Shown here: positions 20,107-54,095 of the stretch, one piece after another
Numbering within the stretch: the first letter of the stretch is position 1
Layout: every line of letters starts with the position of its first letter
IMG/VR virus record: IMGVR_UViG_3300020042_003373
Location: 1-54,329 of that record
Origin: a virus
Lineage: Duplodnaviria; Caudoviricetes
DNA length: 54,329 nt
Reading direction: 5' to 3' (one strand)
Translations under genes and position numbers: made by a program
The notes under the pieces: generated by a model
Database searches by the model: none
What the model saw: only the letters and a program-made list of their open reading frames with translations
What the model was told of the DNA's origin: nothing

Positions 20107-20612
20107 CCATCCCACGCAATCTATCCAACCTCGCCCCTGGCGCTAACACTGGCGGCGTTTTGAGCGCGAGCTATGGTGGTACGGGGCTTATTTCTCCTGG
20201 CACAAGCGGCAACGTCTTGGCCAGCAACGGAACGGCGTGGACTAGCACCAACACAATAACTAGCCCCATTCTTGTCACGCCTACCATCAATGACGGCTAC
20301 ATCGAAGAGACGGTTACCGCTAATACCAGCACAGCCTACACGATCTCGCTGACAGGTGGGTCATTCCAAATCCTAACGCTGACCGGCAATTGCACGTTCA
20401 CCTTCCCGACCGCCACTGCTGGGCAATCCTTCATGATGTTCCTCAAGCAAGACGCGACTGGTTCCAGAACTGTGACGTGGCCTGCTGTGGTGAAGTGGCC
20501 ATCCTCAACAGCGCCGACGATCACGGCGACAGCCAGTAAGGGGGATAAGTTTGTGTTCACTGCAGATGGCACAAATTGGCTTGGCTCCGTTGCTGGGCAG
20601 AATTACCTGTAA
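20103..20612 (+). CDS. Short fibre adaptor protein (module 2)
   Basis: Fibre GGTG repeat; LTLTGNCTFTFP...LKQDATGSRTVTWP..VKWP...D.F.F..DGTNW domain. Confidence 0.68.
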   Translation: MTIPRNLSNLAPGANTGGVLSASYGGTGLISPGTSGNVLASNGTAWTSTNTITSPILVTPTINDGYIEETVTANTSTAYTISLTGGSFQILTLTGNCTFTFPTATAGQSFMMFLKQDATGSRTVTWPAVVKWPSSTAPTITATASKGDKFVFTADGTNWLGSVAGQNYL

Positions 20613-22645
20613 TGTTTAGCGCGAATACAACTCAGGTTGCGGCGGCAACAGCGTCTCGGGCAATTGCTGTCGCTCACAGCGTATTTCCATTCATAACAGC
20701 TTATCCATGGTCAGTTTCCGGCTTCGGCACTAAATATGCCAATCCAGCAACCTTACCTGATGGTGTTGGCCGAGGCGTTGCATTCAGTACTGACGGCTCT
20801 GCAATAGCTGTCGCTCAAGACGATCCTCCCTACATATTAGCGTATCCGTGGTCAGGTTTTGGCTTTGGTACTAAATATGCCAATCCAGCAACCTTACCCA
20901 CTGGAGAGGGAAATGGCGTTGCATTCAGTACTAACGGCTCTGCTATTGCAGTGGCGCACAACACATCGCCATTTGTCTCAGCATATCCGTGGTCAGGTTC
21001 TGGGTTTGGCACAAAGTATGCTAACCCAACAACCCTACCTACCGCTATTGGCCGAGGCGTTGCATTTAGTCCTGACAGCTCTGCTATTGCTATTGCTCAT
21101 CAAACAGCACCATGTGTATCGGCCTATCCATGGTCAGGTTCTGGCTTTGGTACCAAGTACGCTAATCCCGCAACCCTCCCTACCGGCACTGGATTCGGCG
21201 TTGCATTCAGTAATAACGGCTCTGCAATTGCTGTCGCACACAGCTCAATTCCAGTCATATCAGCGTATCCATGGTCAGTTTCCGGTTTCGGAACTAAGTA
21301 CACCAATCCTGCAACCCCACCTACTGGCGATGCATACGGCGTTGCATTTAGTCCTGACAACTCTGCTATTGCTATTGCTCACGAAACATCTCTATTCATA
21401 TCAGCGTATCCATGGTCAGTTTCCGGCTTCGGCACTAAATATGCTAATCCAGCAACCTTACCTACTGGTATAGGATTAGGCGTTGCATTCAGTACTAACG
21501 GCTCTGCTATTGCTGTCGCTCACTCTACAACACCATTTGTATCGGCTTATCCTTGGTCAGGTTCCGGCTTCGGTACCAAGTACACCAATCCCGCAACCCT
21601 ACCTACTGGTAATGGAAACGGCGTCGCCTTCACTTCCGGCGGGTTTCCGGTTCAGCAGATTGCTGTTGGTCACGCTACAACACCGTTTGTTTCGGCGTAT
21701 CCGTGGTCTTCCAGTGGGTTCGGGACTAAGTATGCTAATCCAGCGACATTGCCCGTTAGTACAGGAAATGGCGTAGCTTTTAGTCCCAATGGTTCTGCTA
21801 TTGCTGTTGCCCATTCAACAACGCCATTTGTCTCAGCATATCCTTGGTTTTCAAGTGGGTTTGGAACTAAGTATGCTAATCCAGCAACATTGCCAACAGG
21901 AAACGGGTTCAGTGTTGCCTTTAGCCCTGACGGAACAGCAATTGCTGTCGGTCATTCCTCACCGCCTTTTGTGTCAGCATATCCGTGGTCAGTTTCTGGT
22001 TTTGGAACAAAATATGTTGATTCACCTACCTTTCCGACCAGCACGGGGCGCGGGGTAGCATTTAGTCCTTCTGGAACTGCAATAGCTGTCGCGCACGGTT
22101 TCATACCCTACATATCAGCATACTCATGGTCAGGTTCTGGTTTTGGGTCAAAGTATTCTAATCCAACTACCCTTCCAACAAGCGATGGCAGGAGCGTCTC
22201 ATTCAGTCCTGGCAGCACAGAAATTGCTGTCGCGCACGATTCCAGCCCCTACATAGCAGCATACTCATGGTCAGGTTCTGGGTTTGGAACTAAGTATGCT
22301 GATCCATCCACGTTGCCGACAGGAAACGGGTTAAGTGTTGCATTCAGCCCCGCTGGCACAGAGATTGCCATTGCTCATGCTGTAACGCCGTTTGTGTCGG
22401 CATACCCATGGACAACAGCTAGCGGCTTTGGAACTAAATATACAAACCCAGCCACACTGCCAGCAGCGCAAGGCAATGGCGTTGCGTTCAGCCGTGACGG
22501 CGCAACCCTTGCCGTTGCTCATACCACAACTCCGTTCATTACGGCGTACCCATGGTCAAGCTCCGGGTTCGGAACTAAATACACCAACCCAACCACATTG
22601 CCTGCCAGCACAGGAAATGGCGTTGCTTTCAACACAATCACCTAA
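20612..22645 (+). CDS. Double 7-bladed beta-propeller protein (putative receptor-binding protein)
   Basis: 14 copies of a ~47-aa repeat (IAVAH..PFVSAYPWS.SGFGTKY.NP.TLP...G.GVAFS), arranged 7+7; ATG overlaps the previous stop (TAATG). Confidence 0.78.
   Translation: MFSANTTQVAAATASRAIAVAHSVFPFITAYPWSVSGFGTKYANPATLPDGVGRGVAFSTDGSAIAVAQDDPPYILAYPWSGFGFGTKYANPATLPTGEGNGVAFSTNGSAIAVAHNTSPFVSAYPWSGSGFGTKYANPTTLPTAIGRGVAFSPDSSAIAIAHQTAPCVSAYPWSGSGFGTKYANPATLPTGTGFGVAFSNNGSAIAVAHSSIPVISAYPWSVSGFGTKYTNPATPPTGDAYGVAFSPDNSAIAIAHETSLFISAYPWSVSGFGTKYANPATLPTGIGLGVAFSTNGSAIAVAHSTTPFVSAYPWSGSGFGTKYTNPATLPTGNGNGVAFTSGGFPVQQIAVGHATTPFVSAYPWSSSGFGTKYANPATLPVSTGNGVAFSPNGSAIAVAHSTTPFVSAYPWFSSGFGTKYANPATLPTGNGFSVAFSPDGTAIAVGHSSPPFVSAYPWSVSGFGTKYVDSPTFPTSTGRGVAFSPSGTAIAVAHGFIPYISAYSWSGSGFGSKYSNPTTLPTSDGRSVSFSPGSTEIAVAHDSSPYIAAYSWSGSGFGTKYADPSTLPTGNGLSVAFSPAGTEIAIAHAVTPFVSAYPWTTASGFGTKYTNPATLPAAQGNGVAFSRDGATLAVAHTTTPFITAYPWSSSGFGTKYTNPTTLPASTGNGVAFNTIT
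20660..22630 (+). repeat. ~141-bp coding tandem repeat, 14 copies
   Basis: For example GGCTTCGGCACTAAATATGCC at 20720 and GGCTTTGGTACTAAATATGCC at 20861. Confidence 0.88.
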
Positions 22646-44420: not shown

Positions 44421-45119
44421 TTAGCCTTTCAGTTCTTTTGCGCGGACTTTGAAAGCCTCGACCACGCGCGCGTATTGGTCAGGGCTGCCTGCCTTGAGAT
44501 GGTTCAAGGCGTTGGTGTTGCTGTCGGCATTCCAGAACTCTTTGAGTTCATCGTAGGTCTTGGCCGTGGGAATGAACTGGATGAAGATTTGCTCCACCAT
44601 ATTCCAGTCACCTTCCTCGCCGGGCAGATCGATGGGCTTCTCAACAGGCTTAGCCACCGGCTTGGGCGCTGGCTTAGGCGGGTCAAGATCGAATGCGCCA
44701 GGGTTTGTGGCGTCGGCGTCGATGTCCTTCTCGCCGCTAGCAACCGCAAACGTCTGCCGCATGAACACCTTGTCCACATAGGACATGGCAGAGCCGACAG
44801 TCTGCGCGCCCTGAAAGGGATGAACGATACTAAGGGTTGAGAAACCTTCGATAACATCACCGCTCTCATGGTAGAGATCGATTATGTACTTAGACTGGAC
44901 GCCAAGCTTGGGCGTGGCGGTGGTAAACGCGATCTCCTCCTCGCGAATAACCCACATCAATCCGTTCTTCGATGCGGCGTCAGCCACCGTCTCGTAGTAC
45001 CGATCAATGCTCACATACTTATAGTTGCCATGGGGGTTGAGCGTGTTTTTGCCCAACGTGCCAACGTCCTGGCGGGTTTTGACAACCGCCTTGACGATGT
45101 TTGCGCTAGTCGTATCCAT
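44421..45119 (-). CDS. ERF-like single-strand annealing recombinase
   Basis: K...NPHGNYKYVSID...HESG...AQTVGSAMSY..K...F..GEKD.DA; lies between the SSB and the nuclease. Confidence 0.72.
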   Translation of the reverse strand: MDTTSANIVKAVVKTRQDVGTLGKNTLNPHGNYKYVSIDRYYETVADAASKNGLMWVIREEEIAFTTATPKLGVQSKYIIDLYHESGDVIEGFSTLSIVHPFQGAQTVGSAMSYVDKVFMRQTFAVASGEKDIDADATNPGAFDLDPPKPAPKPVAKPVEKPIDLPGEEGDWNMVEQIFIQFIPTAKTYDELKEFWNADSNTNALNHLKAGSPDQYARVVEAFKVRAKELKG

Positions 45120-46012
45120 CACTGTTCTTCTCCTTTAAGTTTCTTAAACTGCTCGCACCATTGCGATACTGAACAAAAACTCTCACAGCGAGTGTTAAGA
45201 CCGGGCCGCTCTTCAAGCTCTGCCTTGTTGGCTTTGGCAAACTCTTCAGCGTCATCCCGCTCATTCCACTCGAAGACCTTGAGCGCGCGCTTACCGCCCG
45301 GCTTCACTACACCCAACTTGCCGGGGCGATACCACCGCTCGTCATCACTGCACTCTGGAAGCGATTCTCCCCACTCCTGAAGGCGCTGCGCCTCTTGGTG
45401 TAGGGCAACCCTACCCTCAAGGTATGACAGCCTCTCAGCCTCATCCCAGAGGCGCTGAGGAACCATGGAGATAGGTGCCTTAGGGTAGCCTTCCTTATAA
45501 CCAGCCTCATGCCTATTCCAATCACGGCACACGGCAATGATCTGAAGACCGGTGACCTTATAGTTCTTGGTCCTCTCGACCAGATGGGCATAGAGGTTAA
45601 GCTGCCTTTCCCAGTCAGCCTTGTTGTTCATGATTGCCCATGCTGAAGTGAGCTTGTAGTCGGAGATGATAACCTCATGATCACCCGCGCCGTTGATGCC
45701 CAGGCTTTGAAGATCAACGCCGCCAGAGATTGTCCACCCGTTAACATCTAGGAATAGGCGTTCTTCAGGAAGATGCTCGCTATCAGCGCCCTGCTCGACC
45801 ACATGATGAAAGGCTTGGCCCATCAGCGGCCAGACCATCTCACTCACGTCGGTCGTGATCTCATCCTCGTGCTTCTCCCGGAGGACGCGCACACGCGGAC
45901 TGTCAATGATCTGCGTGACCGACAGCCGGGACTTGCCCCTGGAGTATCGGTCGCGCCTCGCCAGATTGACTAGCGTCTGAGGCAAGCCCAGGTTATTGGT
46001 TATCTTTGCCAA
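45119..46012 (-). CDS. PD-(D/E)XK exonuclease (RecB/Cas4-like)
   Basis: SVTQII, G.AFH..VE, E.RL, SGGVD, ISDYK, QLNLYA; C-terminal C...RC..FC.V.QWC. Confidence 0.78.
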   Translation of the reverse strand: MAKITNNLGLPQTLVNLARRDRYSRGKSRLSVTQIIDSPRVRVLREKHEDEITTDVSEMVWPLMGQAFHHVVEQGADSEHLPEERLFLDVNGWTISGGVDLQSLGINGAGDHEVIISDYKLTSAWAIMNNKADWERQLNLYAHLVERTKNYKVTGLQIIAVCRDWNRHEAGYKEGYPKAPISMVPQRLWDEAERLSYLEGRVALHQEAQRLQEWGESLPECSDDERWYRPGKLGVVKPGGKRALKVFEWNERDDAEEFAKANKAELEERPGLNTRCESFCSVSQWCEQFKKLKGEEQ

Positions 46013-49821: not shown

Positions 49822-49850
49822 TTGCGTTGTCATTACCTTTATGCCATCAT
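49822..49850 (+). promoter_or_regulatory. Putative promoter for a leaderless primase-helicase mRNA
   Basis: TTGCGT-N17-CATCAT, with ATG 49857 seven nt downstream and no SD sequence. Confidence 0.4.
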
Positions 49851-49856
49851 CCTTGG

Positions 49857-51563
49857 ATGAGCATTGACCCAGCTTACATAATGGCCAAGGCAAAAGGCCA
49901 ACAGGTCAGGGTCGCGTGCCCGGCATGCGAGCCGACACGCAAGACGCGCAATGATCCAAGTCTGTCCATCCACACAAACCCTGAAGGGGTTTTGGTCTGG
50001 CAGTGCTGGCATTGCGGAGAGACAGGAAGAACAACAGGGGCAAAGCCCCCAGGAGAGAAGAGTATGGCGATAACGCCGATGAGAAAGATTGAGAGCGACA
50101 GCCTGTCGCTTGATGCGCTGGTGTATCTTCAGGGTAGGTGTATCTCGCAAGCTACAGCCGAGAACCTTGGCGTCGTTTCTGGCAATCGCTGGTTCAAGAA
50201 GCTGTCCGCAGAACGCCCTGCCTTGGGCTTTGTGTATGGCCAGAACGGCAATGCCTATGCCGCGAAGTGGCGGTCACTTGAGGGCAAGGACTTCACCGCC
50301 GAGGGTGCTGCCGTCACGCTTTATCTGGCTGATCGGTTGACAGATACGTCCAGGGTGGTGATCACCGAGGGTGAGATGGATGCCCTCTCGTACTGGGAAG
50401 CGGGCATAGAAGCCGTTTCAATCCCCTCTGGAGCCATTGCCAGCGGCACTGCGGATGATGCTGCCCGGCTGCGCTGGATAGCCGCTCACGATGATCTGCT
50501 TGCGAATGCCAAGGAGATTTATCTGGCTGTCGATATGGATGACCCCGGTCAGATCACAGCACAAGAGCTGGCTCGTCGCCTAGGCAAACTCAAATGCTAC
50601 AAAGTGGAGTTCCCGTCAGGAACTAAAGACGCGAACGATGTTCTCGTTAAGAACGGCGCTGATGCACTGAGGGAAACAATCAAGAACGCCCAGCCCTGGC
50701 CCATCGAAGGCGTTGCTCAGCCTGTTGATTTCCATTCCAAGGTCATGGACTTGTACCAGAATGGTTTGCCCCCAGGCAATTCCACTGGTTGGTCCAGTGT
50801 GGACGATGTGTATACGCTTTGCCCAGGCAATCTAGTTGTTGTCACTGGCATCCCTGGTCACGGCAAGTCCACGTTCATCGATGCCATGCTGGTCAATGCG
50901 ATGCAGCAGCACAACTGGTCAGTGGCTTATGCCAGCTTTGAGAACCCGCCAGAGATTCATCTCTCAAAGCTGATTGCTCTGAAGCAGGGCAAACCCTTTG
51001 GCTATGGACCGACACCCCGCCTGAACAACACAGAGCTGGACGAGGGCATGGCCTGGGTGCAGGAGCATGTCACGTTCCTGACCCATGATGGTGTCATGCC
51101 CACGGTCGAGAGCCTAATAGAAAGGTTTGAGACTGCGGTGCGGCGCAATGGTGTTAAGGCTTGCGTCGTCGATCCGTTTAACTTCATCAAGTTGAATGGG
51201 AAAGATGGCGGAGTAGACACTGAAGCCATCAATGAAATGCTCAGTAAGTTCAAGATGTTTGCCCAGCGTAGTGAGGTTGTTTTCTTCATCATTGCTCATC
51301 CGGCGAAGCCAATGAACGCCGGTAGTGACTGGGTACCTACGGGTTACTCCATCAGTGGGTCTGCCCACTGGTATAACCGGGCCGACTTTGGTTTAACCAT
51401 GCACAGGAATGAAAGAATGTCATCCTTGCATGTTTGGAAATGCCGCTTCTCTCATCAAGGAAAGACCGGCAAGGTTGAGCTGTCATATGACAGGCCGACC
51501 GGGGGGTTCAGCGAACCGGGTTTGCCGCTGCCGGGCGATGATAGTTGGATGGACGACATCTAA
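49857..51563 (+). CDS. Primase-helicase (T7 gp4/Twinkle-like)
   Basis: Zn finger CPAC...CWHC; TOPRIM ITEGEMDALS and DMDDPG, KDAND; SF4 Walker A GIPGHGKS, VVDPFN, IAHP.K, ISGSA. Confidence 0.92.
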   Translation: MSIDPAYIMAKAKGQQVRVACPACEPTRKTRNDPSLSIHTNPEGVLVWQCWHCGETGRTTGAKPPGEKSMAITPMRKIESDSLSLDALVYLQGRCISQATAENLGVVSGNRWFKKLSAERPALGFVYGQNGNAYAAKWRSLEGKDFTAEGAAVTLYLADRLTDTSRVVITEGEMDALSYWEAGIEAVSIPSGAIASGTADDAARLRWIAAHDDLLANAKEIYLAVDMDDPGQITAQELARRLGKLKCYKVEFPSGTKDANDVLVKNGADALRETIKNAQPWPIEGVAQPVDFHSKVMDLYQNGLPPGNSTGWSSVDDVYTLCPGNLVVVTGIPGHGKSTFIDAMLVNAMQQHNWSVAYASFENPPEIHLSKLIALKQGKPFGYGPTPRLNNTELDEGMAWVQEHVTFLTHDGVMPTVESLIERFETAVRRNGVKACVVDPFNFIKLNGKDGGVDTEAINEMLSKFKMFAQRSEVVFFIIAHPAKPMNAGSDWVPTGYSISGSAHWYNRADFGLTMHRNERMSSLHVWKCRFSHQGKTGKVELSYDRPTGGFSEPGLPLPGDDSWMDDI

Positions 51564-51596
51564 AAGAAAAGAGGCTGGCAAATTAATGCCAGCCTC
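51562..51596 (-). terminator. Rho-independent terminator of the leftward RAMP-locus transcript
   Basis: GAGGCTGGCA-N6-TGCCAGCCTC stem (51571-51596); on the - strand it is followed by TTTTCTTTT. Confidence 0.75.
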
Positions 51597-51600
51597 CTAT

Positions 51601-51674
51601 GCGCCCTTAGCTCAGTTGGATAGAGCAGAAGCCTTCTAAGCTTCAGGCCGCTGGTTCGAATCCAGCAGGGCGCG
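51601..51674 (+). tRNA. tRNA-Arg(TCT), no encoded CCA
   Basis: Acceptor GCGCCCT/AGGGCGC+G; D arm GCTC-AGTTGGATA-GAGC; anticodon arm GAAGC-CTTCTAA-GCTTC; T arm GCTGG-TTCGAAT-CCAGC. Confidence 0.95.
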
Positions 51675-51683
51675 TATCCTCCA

Positions 51684-52136
51684 TCATGCCAGCGCCTCCC
51701 CTTCTTCGACGGCTTCCATCTGAGCCAGCGCCGCATCGATGTGAGGCACAAGCTCCGCGTACCGGCGATAGCGGGCGGTCACCCGGTGTACCTCGGCACG
51801 CATCTGCCTCAGCAAAGCCTCAGCCCTAACATCATCCTGCACCACCGCCTGGGTGAGGGCGTAGGCCGCCTTGGTCTGGTCATAGACATAAGCCCTAACC
51901 GGAATCAGCGCACCGTCAGGACGGGGCAACATGGTGACTGCGATTCTGATTGTTTCACCGGCTTGCTGTAACCGATATTTCCGAGCGGCTTCAGTGTCAT
52001 CCCATGTGAAGGCAGAATGAAGCGCTGTGTTATTTGACCGGGCAAAATCCACCACATCATCGGGCTTCAGTTCGCCACCGGCCTGAACCCGGAGCATCTC
52101 CAGCTCATGAAGCTGGTCTTTGTTTAGTGTTCTCAT
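51684..52136 (-). CDS. Conserved phage protein, companion of the RAMP/array locus
   Basis: AAGGAGAG RBS; G.L.P.DVVD.AR....LH..FTWDD..AA..YRL.QA...IR motif. Confidence 0.75.
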   Translation of the reverse strand: MRTLNKDQLHELEMLRVQAGGELKPDDVVDFARSNNTALHSAFTWDDTEAARKYRLQQAGETIRIAVTMLPRPDGALIPVRAYVYDQTKAAYALTQAVVQDDVRAEALLRQMRAEVHRVTARYRRYAELVPHIDAALAQMEAVEEGEALA

Positions 52137-52185
52137 TGTTCTCTCCTTAATCATCCACCGCACGATTGCTGCGGATGTTTAGGTA

Positions 52186-52818
52186 GCCGTGCCTGCGGTG
52201 CGGTGCCTATCCTTGCCCCGCCACGCCGCGCCAGTCCTTGCCTGCCGTGCCCTGCCTCACCAGTCCCCGCCCAGCCCCGCCACTCCTGTCCGGGCCTGCC
52301 ATGCCTTGCCGATCCCGGCCATACCGTTCCGGGCCGCGCCTTGCCTGCCGTGCCGGGCCGGGCCATACCTCGCCTGACCATGCCTCGCCTGACCATGTCT
52401 GCCGTGCCGTTCCTGGCCGTGCCCAGCCTTTCCTTGCCTTGCCTGCCGTGCCAATCCCCGCCATGCCAGTCCGGGCCAAGCCACGCCTTGCCTGCCGCGC
52501 CTTGCCATTCCGGGCCAGTCCAAGCCCCGCCTCGCCGCCCGCGCCACGCCTAGCCTAGCCTCGCCTGCCGTGCCCTGCCTCACCATCCCCGCCCAGCCCC
52601 GCCACTCCTGTCCACGCCTGCCGTGCCAGTCTTCGCCCTGCCCGTCCCCGCCGAACCCAACCATGCCTGCCGCGCCAATCCCCGCCAATCCCCGCCGGCC
52701 CTAGCCTCGCCATGCCTGCCGTGCCAATCCCAGCCGTGCCCTGCCAGTCCACTCCTAGCCTTGCCTGCCGCGCCAGTCCGCGCCCCGCTATGCCCTGCCA
52801 CGCCATACCTGCCATGCC
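52186..52818 (-). repeat. Array 1: GG(C/A/T)-NN pentamer array of ~12-13 units delimited by GGCAGGC
   Basis: Delimiters (+ strand GCCTGCC or variant) at 52191, 52240, 52294, 52343, 52397, 52441, 52490, 52563, 52616, 52665, 52714, 52763, 52807. Confidence 0.9.
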
Positions 52819-52820
52819 AA

Positions 52821-52848
52821 CTGCGCCCCGCCCGAAGGCAGGGCGCAG
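52821..52848 (-). other. cUUCGg tetraloop hairpin at the 5' end of array 1
   Basis: - strand CTGCGCCCTGCC-TTCG-GGCGGGGCGCAG (12 bp, one G-U), 6 nt after the RAMP stop codon. Confidence 0.8.
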
Positions 52849-52854
52849 CATGTA

Positions 52855-53502
52855 TTACTGCTGGCTGTTGTCGATTTCGAAGTGACCCCAGCCCATGCCA
52901 GTGCTGGCCTTCGAATCAGCGCGGCCTTCACCGACGCCAACCTGAGCGCCAACACGGGCAACAAGAGCGGCAACATCCCCCTGTGTGAACTGCTCACTGT
53001 CGAACCGGATACGCAGATCGGCAGCCCAGTCACGCCACATCGGGCGGGTACGGATATCAATAACGCCGGTAGCGTTACGGACATGCATGTCGGTGCGCTC
53101 CGGCTCGCCGGCAATGATCCGCACCAGCGGGGTGCCATCGATAACATCCAGACCATCAGCCTCCACAAACAGGGAGAGCTTAGCCAGGGTCATCTTAAAA
53201 CCGACCAAGCGGCATGCCGAGATCAGGCCGTTGCGGAATGCGCCAGCGTGAATGCCATCCCACCCCTCAGAGGACAGGTGGCGTGCGCCTTGGAAGACTT
53301 CATCGAAGTCTTTCGGGTCACGCTTCGCGCCCTTCTTGGCAGTCGAGCCAGCCGCCATCTTTTCCATCATCGCCTGCTGCGCCTTGGCAGGAAAGCGATT
53401 GATCACCAGCGGTGCGGTGCCAACGATACGCAACACCATCCGCTGCATCGCGGGCGGCTTGATGTTAATGCTGGTCGTCGGAATCTTCGAAACTTCAGTC
53501 AT
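52855..53502 (-). CDS. Stand-alone RAMP (Cas7/Csm3-like) protein
   Basis: First strand LRIVGTAPLVI, IHAGAFRNGLISAC helix (compare the RAMP ipgssiKG.lR motif), and C-terminal Gly-rich loop GAQVGVGEGR....GMGWGHFEI; AAGGAGAG RBS. Confidence 0.7.
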   Translation of the reverse strand: MTEVSKIPTTSINIKPPAMQRMVLRIVGTAPLVINRFPAKAQQAMMEKMAAGSTAKKGAKRDPKDFDEVFQGARHLSSEGWDGIHAGAFRNGLISACRLVGFKMTLAKLSLFVEADGLDVIDGTPLVRIIAGEPERTDMHVRNATGVIDIRTRPMWRDWAADLRIRFDSEQFTQGDVAALVARVGAQVGVGEGRADSKASTGMGWGHFEIDNSQQ

Positions 53503-53580
53503 GATTATTCTCTCCTTGTTTAACCCACACCGTTATCAATGTGGGGTAGTCAACTAAAGGACCATTCCTTCAGTTGTTAT

Positions 53581-53867
53581 TCCTGCGGTGCTTTGCCTTG
53601 CCCCGCCACACCAATCCAAGCCGTGCCCCACCTGACCCGGCCACGCCTAGCCTGCCGTGCCTTGCCAATCCAGGCCGCGCCGATCCTTGCCTTGCCTGCC
53701 GTACCTCGCCAGTCCGCGCCACGCCATGCCGGGCCACGCCTGTCCACGCCAGTCCACGCCTGCCGTGCCGTTCCTGACCGTGCCTGTCCTGGCCAAGCCC
53801 TGCCTTGCCTGCCTTACCCTACCAGTCCCCGCCAAGCCCCGCCTGGCCAATCCACGCCTGCCTTGCC
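53581..53867 (-). repeat. Array 2: GG(C/A/T)-NN pentamer array of 5 units
   Basis: Delimiters at 53581, 53650, 53694, 53758, 53807, 53856 (spacings 69, 44, 64, 49, 49, all 5n+4). Confidence 0.9.
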
Positions 53868-54095
53868 TTAGCGTCCGCCCTCAGCCTCCACCCTGCGGGC
53901 GCTCTTGAGGTAAGCTTTAGCCAGCATCAGCCGACCGAAGGCCAGATTTTCCGCGGCCCTGGACCGCAGCATGAGAGCAGTGAACCGCGTCATGGTTTCC
54001 GGCTCACTCACCTCCAGCTTTTCCCTCATATCCATGAGGATCTGCTGAGCTTCAGCATGCAGCAGCCTCGACCGAACGAATACCCGCTCATTCAT
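53868..54095 (-). CDS. Hypothetical helical protein
   Basis: AAGGAGAG RBS before MNERVF; its stop abuts array 2. Confidence 0.6.
   Translation of the reverse strand: MNERVFVRSRLLHAEAQQILMDMREKLEVSEPETMTRFTALMLRSRAAENLAFGRLMLAKAYLKSARRVEAEGGR

Follow-up and report, generated by a model that had tools for sequence, protein, structure and literature searches.

The closest described counterparts of the locus studied here are the VIPR (Viral Interference Programmable Repeat) systems, which joined the known RNA-guided systems only very recently. They consist of a RAMP protein, Vipr, and vrRNAs built from GGY/NN repeats, with one protomer per repeat; they recognize DNA by a 1-nt-skip rule and silence the transcription of rival mobile elements (bioRxiv 10.64898/2026.04.26.720920, 10.64898/2026.04.26.720927). 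According to the same two preprints, the only characterized Vipr relatives bind dsDNA, with targets reported on both strands, and the biochemistry has so far been confined to type II systems, those of Escherichia phage SUSP1 and a Pseudomonas fulva prophage. In SUSP1 Vipr the GGY bases are held by H17, R138, D177, W178 and R179; R138 and D177 are essential by mutation, and W178 stacks on the second G (bioRxiv 10.64898/2026.04.26.720920, 10.64898/2026.04.26.720927).

We have analyzed a viral contig of 54,329 nucleotides (the window), which is recognizable as a phage by its terminase, portal, tail fibers, Erf and primase/helicase, and is about 89% complete. When a 4.9-kb structural gene was compared by megablast with 50,697 phage records, no match was obtained. 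Among the early and replication genes, adjoining the primase/helicase, lies a locus (51684-53866) that we identify, with a probability of roughly 0.87, as the VIPR system of a freshwater tailed phage. It combines a RAMP fold, a match to SUSP1 Vipr, arrays on the gene strand, a viral context and an absence of cas genes. The preliminary description of this DNA had suggested a link to VIPR, and the literature agrees (bioRxiv 10.64898/2026.04.26.720920, 10.64898/2026.04.26.720927). VIPR as a class is already published in those 2026 preprints, and the phage locus is a further example, not a new type of system. Features in common with the characterized type II systems are a small RAMP protein of about 20 kDa, 5-nt units of GG, a mostly pyrimidine base and two variable bases that flank the gene on either side and lie on its strand, a small downstream accessory gene, and carriage by a phage in the absence of cas genes.

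The vipr gene (52855-53502, minus strand) is present as predicted, as an open reading frame for a Cas7-like RAMP protein of 215 aa. The structural comparison with Cas7 and Csm3 that had been proposed as a check was made using Foldseek, giving 58 matches at E ≤ 1e-3, of which the top matches listed are Csm3/Cas7-type chains. The nearest structural neighbors are the Csm3 subunits of RNA-targeting type III, VII and III-E complexes, with sequence identities of 8-14%. Searches of Pfam, NCBIfam and PADLOC returned nothing meaningful for Vipr. The protein does match PDB 36pp_D ('SUSP1 Vipr protein'), with phmmer E = 4.9e-4 and profile E = 4.7e-5. This match is local and modest, extending over 46 residues (150-196) of the thumb-to-G-loop stretch, and at E values of about 1e-4 to 1e-5 the two proteins are distant relatives. 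Within it the equivalents of R138, D177 and R179 are conserved, aligning with R153, E192 and R194 of the phage protein, all three of which are invariant in 28 homologs. In contrast, W178 aligns with G193, an invariant glycine. H17 aligns with N35 in a weak N-terminal alignment only.

Two non-coding arrays flanking the RAMP gene had been described, and both were found, on the minus strand, i.e., that of vipr. The upstream array (53596-53866) contains 56 GG anchors, separated by 50 steps of 5 nt and five of 4 nt, and its start coincides with the stop codon of an 84-aa ORF. In the downstream array (52206-52832) the 125 anchors are separated by 107 steps of 5 nt, 13 of 4 nt, three of 10 nt and one of 9 nt. 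Taken together, 157 steps of 5 nt occur among 181 anchors. The downstream array has 114 GG-to-GG pairs at a distance of 5, where 1000 shuffles gave a mean of 39.8 (sd 6.2, max 59), and the upstream array has 49 (shuffles 14.9, sd 3.9, max 29), a periodicity far above chance. Across the whole window, in-phase NNNGG runs of at least four units occur 20 times on the minus strand, each time inside one of the two arrays, and never on the plus strand; by this measure there are no array-like repeats elsewhere in the contig on either strand. Tandem Repeats Finder reported periods of 10, 15, 20, 25, 44 and 49 in the array region. The arrays thus have the form used to recognize VIPR, that of tandem YNNGG repeats of at least four units in non-coding DNA beside vipr. 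DNA sequencing runs show array variants at the position of the downstream array.

In the 15 clean modules the base following GG is C in 92 units, A in 28, T in 12 and G in one (n = 133; 78% pyrimidine), and all 16 dinucleotides are used at the NN positions, so that the earlier unit formula of GG(C/A/T) followed by NN was accurate. The 28 units with A (21%) set the phage apart from SUSP1, whose Vipr excludes purines at the Y position. The description of the arrays as pentamers needs one amendment, in that they are punctuated by CAGG units that are one base short. These divide the arrays into about 18 modules, mostly of 8-13 units.

All modules are read on the minus strand. The five staggered modules of the upstream array are U1 (53861-53812), U2 (53812-53763), U3 (53763-53699), U4 (53699-53655) and U5 (53655-53596), and each opens with a CAGG that shares one G with the module before it. 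The downstream array provides approximately 13 more, some of them degenerate: D6 (52812-52768), D7 (52768-52719), D8 (52719-52670), D9 (52670-52621), D10/11 (52621-52568), D12 (52568-52539), D13 (52539-52495), D14 (52495-52446), D15a (52446-52402), D15b (52402-52348), D16 (52348-52299), D17 (52299-52245) and D18 (52245-52206). D10/11 duplicates D17 except for the loss of 1 nt.

The VIPR preprint describes, in the legend of its Fig. S18, a 'staggered vrRNA' layout, in which successive vrRNAs overlap by 1 nt, the end of one marking the start of the next. The phage arrays have the layout so described, with the same register slip at every CAGG. Small-RNA sequencing in the preprint confirmed only the ribozyme-interspersed and single-vrRNA architectures, the staggered one not being among them, and the phage locus offers a clean natural example of it. 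SUSP1 differs in having four vrRNAs, each with a pseudoknot tail of about 40 nt, whereas the guides of the phage abut with their 1-nt overlap at CAGG. Across the homolog loci CAGG accounts for 916 of the 1263 units of 4 nt, and the commonest module size is 8-11 units.

The association of arrays with vipr homologs, another check that had been suggested, is general. Using a stricter score, arrays lie on the vipr strand in 178 of 208 loci and on the other strand in none; a simpler count of runs of at least five units finds them on the vipr strand in 73 of 81 viral loci and on the other strand in eight. The phage has 931 array bases where the median is 337, and so ranks fifth of 209 loci, and one of the four above it is the same phage. 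Locus L149, the same phage from another sample, differs at a single position, which is an NN position. The more informative comparison is with a close relative, L150, whose Vipr protein is identical. At the DNA level its vipr coding sequence has 95.2% identity, and as all 31 of the nucleotide differences are synonymous, the substitution pattern indicates that Vipr is under strong purifying selection. The arrays of the two phages are only about 70% identical, the downstream array being 290 nt in L150 vs 627 nt here, and only two of the 18 modules are common to both. Compared in this way, guide content is evidently replaced at a far higher rate than the genes change, in line with what a guide store in an arms race should show.

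These observations bear upon the possibility that what accompanies the gene is simply a DNA-level or decayed element, be it a set of G-rich repeats, a series of protein binding sites or an inactive remnant. G-rich structures could arise from a GG recurring every 5 nt, and several modules, including D10/11 and D15b, are degenerate or duplicated. However, in all 178 of the loci with arrays these share the coding strand of vipr, Vipr is evidently constrained by selection, and the spacing of GG is kept despite the variation at NN. Moreover, an exact RNA-library contig of 160 nt (53650-53809, 0 mismatches) falls inside the upstream array, although it provides weak evidence as it carries no strand. 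We consider this the least probable of the alternatives weighed here. In all, two metatranscriptome libraries gave exact contigs, this one and another in vipr, with neither strand nor ends defined; such contigs may be DNA carry-over, and stretches left uncovered are not evidence of silence.

The RAMP gene had been called a lone one. This proved incorrect, since a gene like that at 51684-52136 (minus strand), which lies within the coordinates given by the preliminary description itself, occurs downstream in 159 of 208 homolog loci. We take it to be a candidate vap (VIPR accessory protein) gene, of 150 aa. The predicted structure has an N-terminal winged-helix-like domain and a C-terminal helix of 48 residues, and on this model the candidate Vap looks like a winged-helix DNA binder. 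Neither it nor the 84-aa ORF has a meaningful match in Pfam, NCBIfam or PADLOC; Pfam applied to 34 Vap homologs gave one match, which is the level expected by chance, and in the ESM Atlas Vap falls only into unnamed viral clusters. The 84-aa and 61-aa ORFs upstream were considered as parts of the system and rejected, being absent from all of 147 loci and present in two of 208, both of the same phage lineage.

The reported absence of cas genes and of a classical repeat-spacer array was upheld. PADLOC applied to the 49 ORFs of the window at E ≤ 1e-5 gave a sole match, a primase-like one to the primase/helicase; at E ≤ 1e-3 the three locus proteins had no match. Apart from the 5-nt-based arrays, the only repeat picked up by repeat finders was a coding one of 141 nt. 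The locus contains no nuclease partner. The phage therefore differs from class 1 CRISPR systems with Csm3/Cas7 (III-A, VII, III-E) in having no repeat-spacer array and no Cas1, Cas2, Cas6 or Cas10, and with neither such an array nor a multi-gene cas operon the locus is not class 1 CRISPR-Cas. The geometry of the guide also differs. The class 1 backbones have a period of 6 nt with one base flipped, whereas VIPR RNA has a period of 5 nt with three bases sequestered.

By analogy with the published type II systems we would expect the locus to function as follows. A minus-strand operon in the order upstream array, vipr, downstream array, vap would be transcribed, and Vipr would bind the GG-rich array RNA with one protomer per 5-nt unit, sequestering GG and the next base and presenting the two variable bases. 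That arrangement, proposed for this locus from the outset as GGN held and NN presented, matches what has been shown for SUSP1 Vipr, and is extended to the phage protein by homology. Because CAGG would break the 5-nt register every 8-13 units or so, the two arrays would yield about 18 staggered guides of roughly 45-65 nt. Following the NN-skip-one rule, each guide would recognize dsDNA belonging to a rival, be it a phage, a satellite or a prophage, and transcription would be silenced with the winged-helix-like Vap assisting. The phage locus leaves the known VIPR mechanism unchanged.

We have searched for targets of the modules in the available DNA. The 15 clean modules were compared with 147 loci (803 kb), where those with at least 18 NN positions had no match at two or fewer mismatches. 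When 221 unique modules were compared with 1.07 Mb of local DNA, the skip-1 rule gave 0, 0 and 22 matches at 0, 1 and 2 mismatches, respectively. This is no excess over the control skips of 0, 2 and 3, with 28, 19 (plus three at one mismatch) and 23 matches at two mismatches. The lack of a DNA target in these local scans (~1.07 Mb) could suggest a VIPR-like RNP acting on RNA in the manner of the type III Csm3/Cas7 backbones, binding or cleaving rival transcripts rather than engaging dsDNA. Such an action would fit the best structural neighbors of Vipr, which come from RNA-targeting complexes, and the change of some GGY-contact residues (W178 to G193). We nevertheless regard it as very unlikely, given that the only characterized relatives bind dsDNA with targets on both strands, that the candidate Vap has the predicted look of a DNA binder, and that no nuclease accompanies Vipr in the locus.

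The phage's own genes were also considered as targets, the system then acting as a developmental switch and not in attack on rivals. The position of the locus among early and replication genes beside the primase/helicase, and the high conservation of the leader (see below), would be in keeping with such a role. Yet within the 54-kb window the best self-matches were 12-17 of 16-26 positions under skip rules 0-3 alike, so no module fits the phage's own DNA better by 1-nt-skip than by the control rules, and the rapid replacement of modules between near-identical phages is more readily explained by conflict than by housekeeping. As the contig is about 89% complete, a self-target could lie in the missing part. 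Overall we judge regulation of the phage's own genes to be extremely improbable, and return to silencing of rivals as the preferred reading.

The guide store is unusually large, and a close relative combines an identical effector with almost entirely different guides. These two properties make the locus a good substrate for asking what sets the limits of a staggered guide, by which steps modules come and go, and against what freshwater phages direct their guides. A more speculative proposal, which we think doubtful but conceivable, is that in this large Vipr clade CAGG is the only guide punctuation, interrupting the 5-nt register of the Vipr filament, a long transcript giving rise to some 18 guides by a route that uses no ribozyme, per-guide tail or Cas6-like nuclease, and that this short conserved junction also serves as the point of crossover for whole modules between co-infecting phages, perhaps by means of the phage's own Erf/exonuclease pair. 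If true, this would amount to a spacer-like turnover that dispenses with Cas1-Cas2.

Lastly we examined the RNA elements around the arrays. Hairpins are predicted after both arrays, with no tails between modules, and the array RNA itself is no more structured than shuffled sequences (z = -0.82). The leader or tail between the upstream array and vipr (53503-53595, minus strand) is predicted to form two hairpins followed by a Shine-Dalgarno-like AAGGAG, with MFE = -27.7 kcal/mol and z = -3.97. It is 97.7% identical to that of L150, above the identity of the vipr coding sequence. Hairpin 2 is predicted in seven of seven relatives with differing stem sequences, and hairpin 1 in six of seven; a consensus fold of 24 leaders, which aligned poorly, gave no structure. 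After the downstream array, the tail (52137-52205, minus strand) has a predicted hairpin, possibly a small pseudoknot, followed by AAGGAG and the start of vap, with MFE = -21 and a z of -1.31 that is not significant. A scan for a pseudoknot pattern gave 38 matches, one of them in 52137-52205, vs 37 in reverse-complement controls, from which nothing is inferred because the pattern is symmetric and the control consequently invalid. Between 51500 and 54329 no sigma-70-like promoter was found, and Rfam identified a tRNA only, with no hammerhead or other family. This is tRNA-Arg(TCT), at 51600-51675 on the plus strand, and beyond it, downstream of the operon, lies a terminator-like minus-strand hairpin of 12 pairs with a T run (51569-51598).

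The two arrays that flank the 215-aa RAMP-like gene have been analyzed on the minus strand, where GG recurs every 5 nt in both. The upstream array (53866-53596, minus strand) contains 56 GG anchors separated by 50 steps of 5 nt and five of 4 nt, and the downstream array (52832-52206, minus strand) contains 125, with 107 steps of 5 nt, 13 of 4 nt, three of 10 nt and one of 9 nt. The number of GG pairs 5 nt apart is 49 in the upstream array compared with a shuffle mean of 14.9 (maximum 29), and 114 in the downstream array compared with 39.8 (maximum 59 in 1000 shuffles). Outside both arrays, no in-phase run of four or more units was found on either strand of the whole window. In 15 clean modules the base 3′ of GG is C in 92 of 133 units, A in 28, T in 12 and G in one, and all 16 NN dinucleotides are represented. 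The arrays are genuine, and the preliminary description of a RAMP gene placed between two arrays of GG(C/A/T) plus NN units is confirmed by the anchors, shuffle controls and base counts.

The 4-nt steps correspond in nearly all cases to a CAGG unit. Each CAGG displaces the register by 1 nt, and the arrays are thereby divided into five modules upstream and about 13 downstream. Most modules comprise 8-13 units with a commonest spacing of 49 nt, and adjacent modules overlap by 1 nt when the shared G is counted; the periods returned by TRF are 44, 49 and multiples of 5. Some modules are degenerate or duplicated: in the downstream array D10/11 is a copy of D17 less 1 nt, and D15b starts with a mutated CAGG.

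The locus occupies the right end of the window, which is classed as linear and about 89% complete in the IMG/VR record of 54,329 bases. PHROG matches give the gene set of a tailed phage, including a terminase large subunit truncated at the left end, portal, virion and tail-fibre proteins, an endolysin, an Erf/exonuclease pair, a MazG-like pyrophosphatase and a primase/helicase (49827-51563). In minus-strand order an 84-aa ORF (54122-53868) comes first, with the upstream array beginning at its stop codon, followed by a 93-nt leader, the RAMP-like gene vipr (53502-52855), the downstream array, a 69-nt tail and a 150-aa ORF (52136-51684) that is a candidate accessory gene, vap. Between the primase/helicase and this operon lies a plus-strand tRNA-Arg(TCT) (51600-51675), flanked by a two-way terminator-like hairpin (51598-51569). 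A near-identical ribosome-binding stretch (AAGGAGAGAA) precedes both vipr (53523-53510) and vap (52155-52140) on the minus strand, in each case immediately 3′ of an array-trailing hairpin.

PADLOC identified no cas gene, and the Erf/exonuclease pair is the phage's own recombination module. The exonuclease (45119-46012, minus strand), which adjoins the Erf-like annealing protein (44421-45122, minus strand), matches PHROG 2139 and, weakly, a second PHROG labelled 'CRISPR/Cas system associated', i.e., Cas4/RecB-like. Elsewhere in the window, a plus-strand ORF of 689 aa (20576-22645; PHROG 19311) contains a 141-nt (47-codon) tandem repeat at 20663-22368, with about seven copies 70-78% alike and further diverged ones; its product is probably a structural or fibre protein built from these repeats.

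Searches of Pfam, NCBIfam and PADLOC with the 215-aa protein gave no meaningful match, and in PHROG it matches family 4652, of unknown function (E = 1.2e-13). The sole real match among PDB sequences is 36pp_D, the Vipr protein of Escherichia phage SUSP1, over residues 150-196 (E = 4.9e-4 with the single sequence, 4.7e-5 with a 28-sequence profile). In the SUSP1 protein R138 is described as forming a salt bridge with the second G of the repeat, D177 as hydrogen bonding to the first G and R179 as holding the pyrimidine, with R138 and D177 essential on mutation (10.64898/2026.04.26.720927). These three residues align with R153, E192 and R194, all invariant in 28 of 28 homologues, and SUSP1 W178 aligns with an invariant glycine. 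An AlphaFold2 model (pLDDT 80.2) shows an RRM core, with residues 135-156 forming a β-hairpin thumb, and a flexible loop rich in G at the C terminus. The proposed Cas7-like character is borne out by Foldseek, which gave 58 matches at E ≤ 1e-3, the top-listed ones all being Csm3/Cas7 chains. Its best matches in BFVD are with an uncharacterised viral protein (E = 6.7e-14) and with a siphovirus protein labelled 'Cas system-associated RAMP'.

The Vipr family is large, with 4687 of 5078 candidate proteins matching at E ≤ 1e-3, and every named one is 'hypothetical'. We fetched 208 loci, comprising Cyanophage Cy-LDV1, 80 from IMG/VR, 66 from bacterial genomes or MAGs and 61 from metagenomes. By a simple count, 73 of the first 81 have runs of at least five NNNGG units on the vipr strand; eight have such a run on the opposite strand, in each case a single one of five units. 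Using a chain score, arrays are present on the vipr strand in 178 of the 208 loci and on the other strand in none, so that the suggested co-occurrence of homologue and array is found; the 30 array-less loci include several that are short or cut near vipr. CAGG accounts for 916 of the 1263 4-nt units in this set, and the commonest module size is 8-11 units. At some 600 CAGG junctions the adjacent units are variable, with conservation confined to the GG scaffold and the C following GG. Thus the staggered, CAGG-punctuated layout is the norm for the clade.

The 66 bacterial-genome and MAG loci come from many phyla, with Vipr identities of 40-67%. Their labels include Proteobacteria, Planctomycetota, Verrucomicrobiota, Cyanobacteria, Bacteroidota, Acidobacteria, Gemmatimonadota, Chloroflexi and candidate Peregrinibacteria, and for a phage gene such conservation between phyla is unusually high. 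Homologues of 28-30% identity, annotated 'hypothetical protein', are also encoded in 28 phage records, 25 of them Mycobacterium and three Gordonia.

The RAMP gene had been called 'lone'. It is without a cas partner, but 119 of 147 loci, and 159 of the full 208, encode a homologue of the 150-aa ORF, which nearly always lies downstream of vipr in the same orientation. Writing V for vipr, A for array and P for this homologue, the gene orders among the 208 are VAP 53, VPA 43, VA 27, VAPA 16, V 16, VP 15, AVAPA 11, AVP 7, AVAP 6 (the order in the window), AVPA 6, AV 4, AVA 2, PAV 1 and PAVA 1.

As described in four preprints (10.64898/2026.04.26.720920; 10.64898/2026.04.26.720927; 10.64898/2026.10.15.759431; 10.64898/2026.10.21.760802), VIPR (Viral Interference Programmable Repeat) combines a Vipr RAMP with guide vrRNAs, made up of 9-16 YNNGG repeats and a structured 3′ tail, and generally a single vap gene; the systems are mostly phage-borne and of seven types. 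Vipr protomers assemble into a helical filament, one on each repeat, and dsDNA is targeted with a 1-nt skip, leading to transcriptional silencing of rival satellites and prophages. The locus fits this published description, its function being assigned here by homology, and the link to VIPR made in the preliminary description is supported by these accounts and the 36pp_D match. Compared with the type II systems studied so far, its Vipr is distant in sequence and has glycine at the W178 position, its units tolerate A after GG, its guides are without a per-guide tail, and it holds many more of them. The conclusion that emerges is that the locus is a VIPR, of a kind described very recently and not new in kind. 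The locus is of value as a naturally occurring case of the staggered layout, as yet unvalidated, and of rapid turnover of guides.

This turnover is seen on comparison with related loci. The same phage in another sample (L149) is 99.97% identical across 3171 nt, with a single change, at an NN position. A second locus, L150, encodes a Vipr 100% identical to that of the window. The coding sequences are 95.2% identical, and since the proteins are identical all 31 differences are synonymous. Identity is 97.7% in the leader, 90.2% in the 84-aa ORF and 90.1% in the tail plus vap, and 70-72% in the arrays, the level reached by any two such arrays. The downstream array of L150 is 290 nt long, compared with 627 nt in the window, and only two of the 18 modules are common to both (U4, 100%; D7, 94%). 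The others lie at a background of 72-84%, except the 30-nt D12, which reaches 0.90 in three loci. Array variants also occur in DNA contigs from two metagenomes of freshwater or related origin; one jumps over 108 nt, and several are loose ends that keep the 5-nt grammar.

Contigs from two DNA metagenome runs (X3 and X4) join 51709 to 53896, leaving out 2186 nt that hold the whole cassette (vipr, both arrays and most of vap), and this join is deeper than the cassette-bearing form (82.6 versus about 37 in X3). Just 26 nt fit one side of the join and there are 5 mismatches in 53 in the joined part, so it may come from a related phage without the VIPR cassette, or with a different one.

In the target scans the NN of each unit was matched to two bases of the target, with one further base skipped, following the preprint descriptions (10.64898/2026.04.26.720920; 10.64898/2026.04.26.720927). 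Within the window, with arrays masked, the best self-target scores were equal for skips of 0-3, in agreement with the published report of no self-targeting. No targets were found in 147 loci, and 221 unique modules from all loci gave no excess for a skip of 1 against 1.07 Mb.

Two metatranscriptome libraries from different studies each contain one exactly matching contig, of 185 nt within vipr (52967-53151) and of 160 nt within the upstream array (53650-53809, roughly U2-U4). These are assembled contigs, strandless and lacking end information, with DNA carry-over possible, and are therefore counted as a weak hint of transcription.

The predicted structure of the array RNA is on a par with shuffles (z = −0.82). 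Two hairpins are predicted in the leader following the upstream array (z = −3.97). Hairpin 1 forms in six of seven relatives; hairpin 2 forms in all seven with quite different stems, 3′ of a conserved ACTACC box. A pair count on a sequence-based alignment gave 63.5% paired, no better than with a one-column slide. The element may act as a 3′ tail to the array, as the vipr 5′ UTR, or in both roles. In other loci (L012, L023, L031, L039, L049/L050, L088, L089 and L090) a motif recurs 6-15 nt 3′ of the upstream array that is compatible with a small H-type pseudoknot whose loop is AGCAA(T). Judged by eye, its stems vary in sequence while complementarity is kept, and the motif is similar to the tail pseudoknot that SUSP1 vrRNAs are reported to carry.
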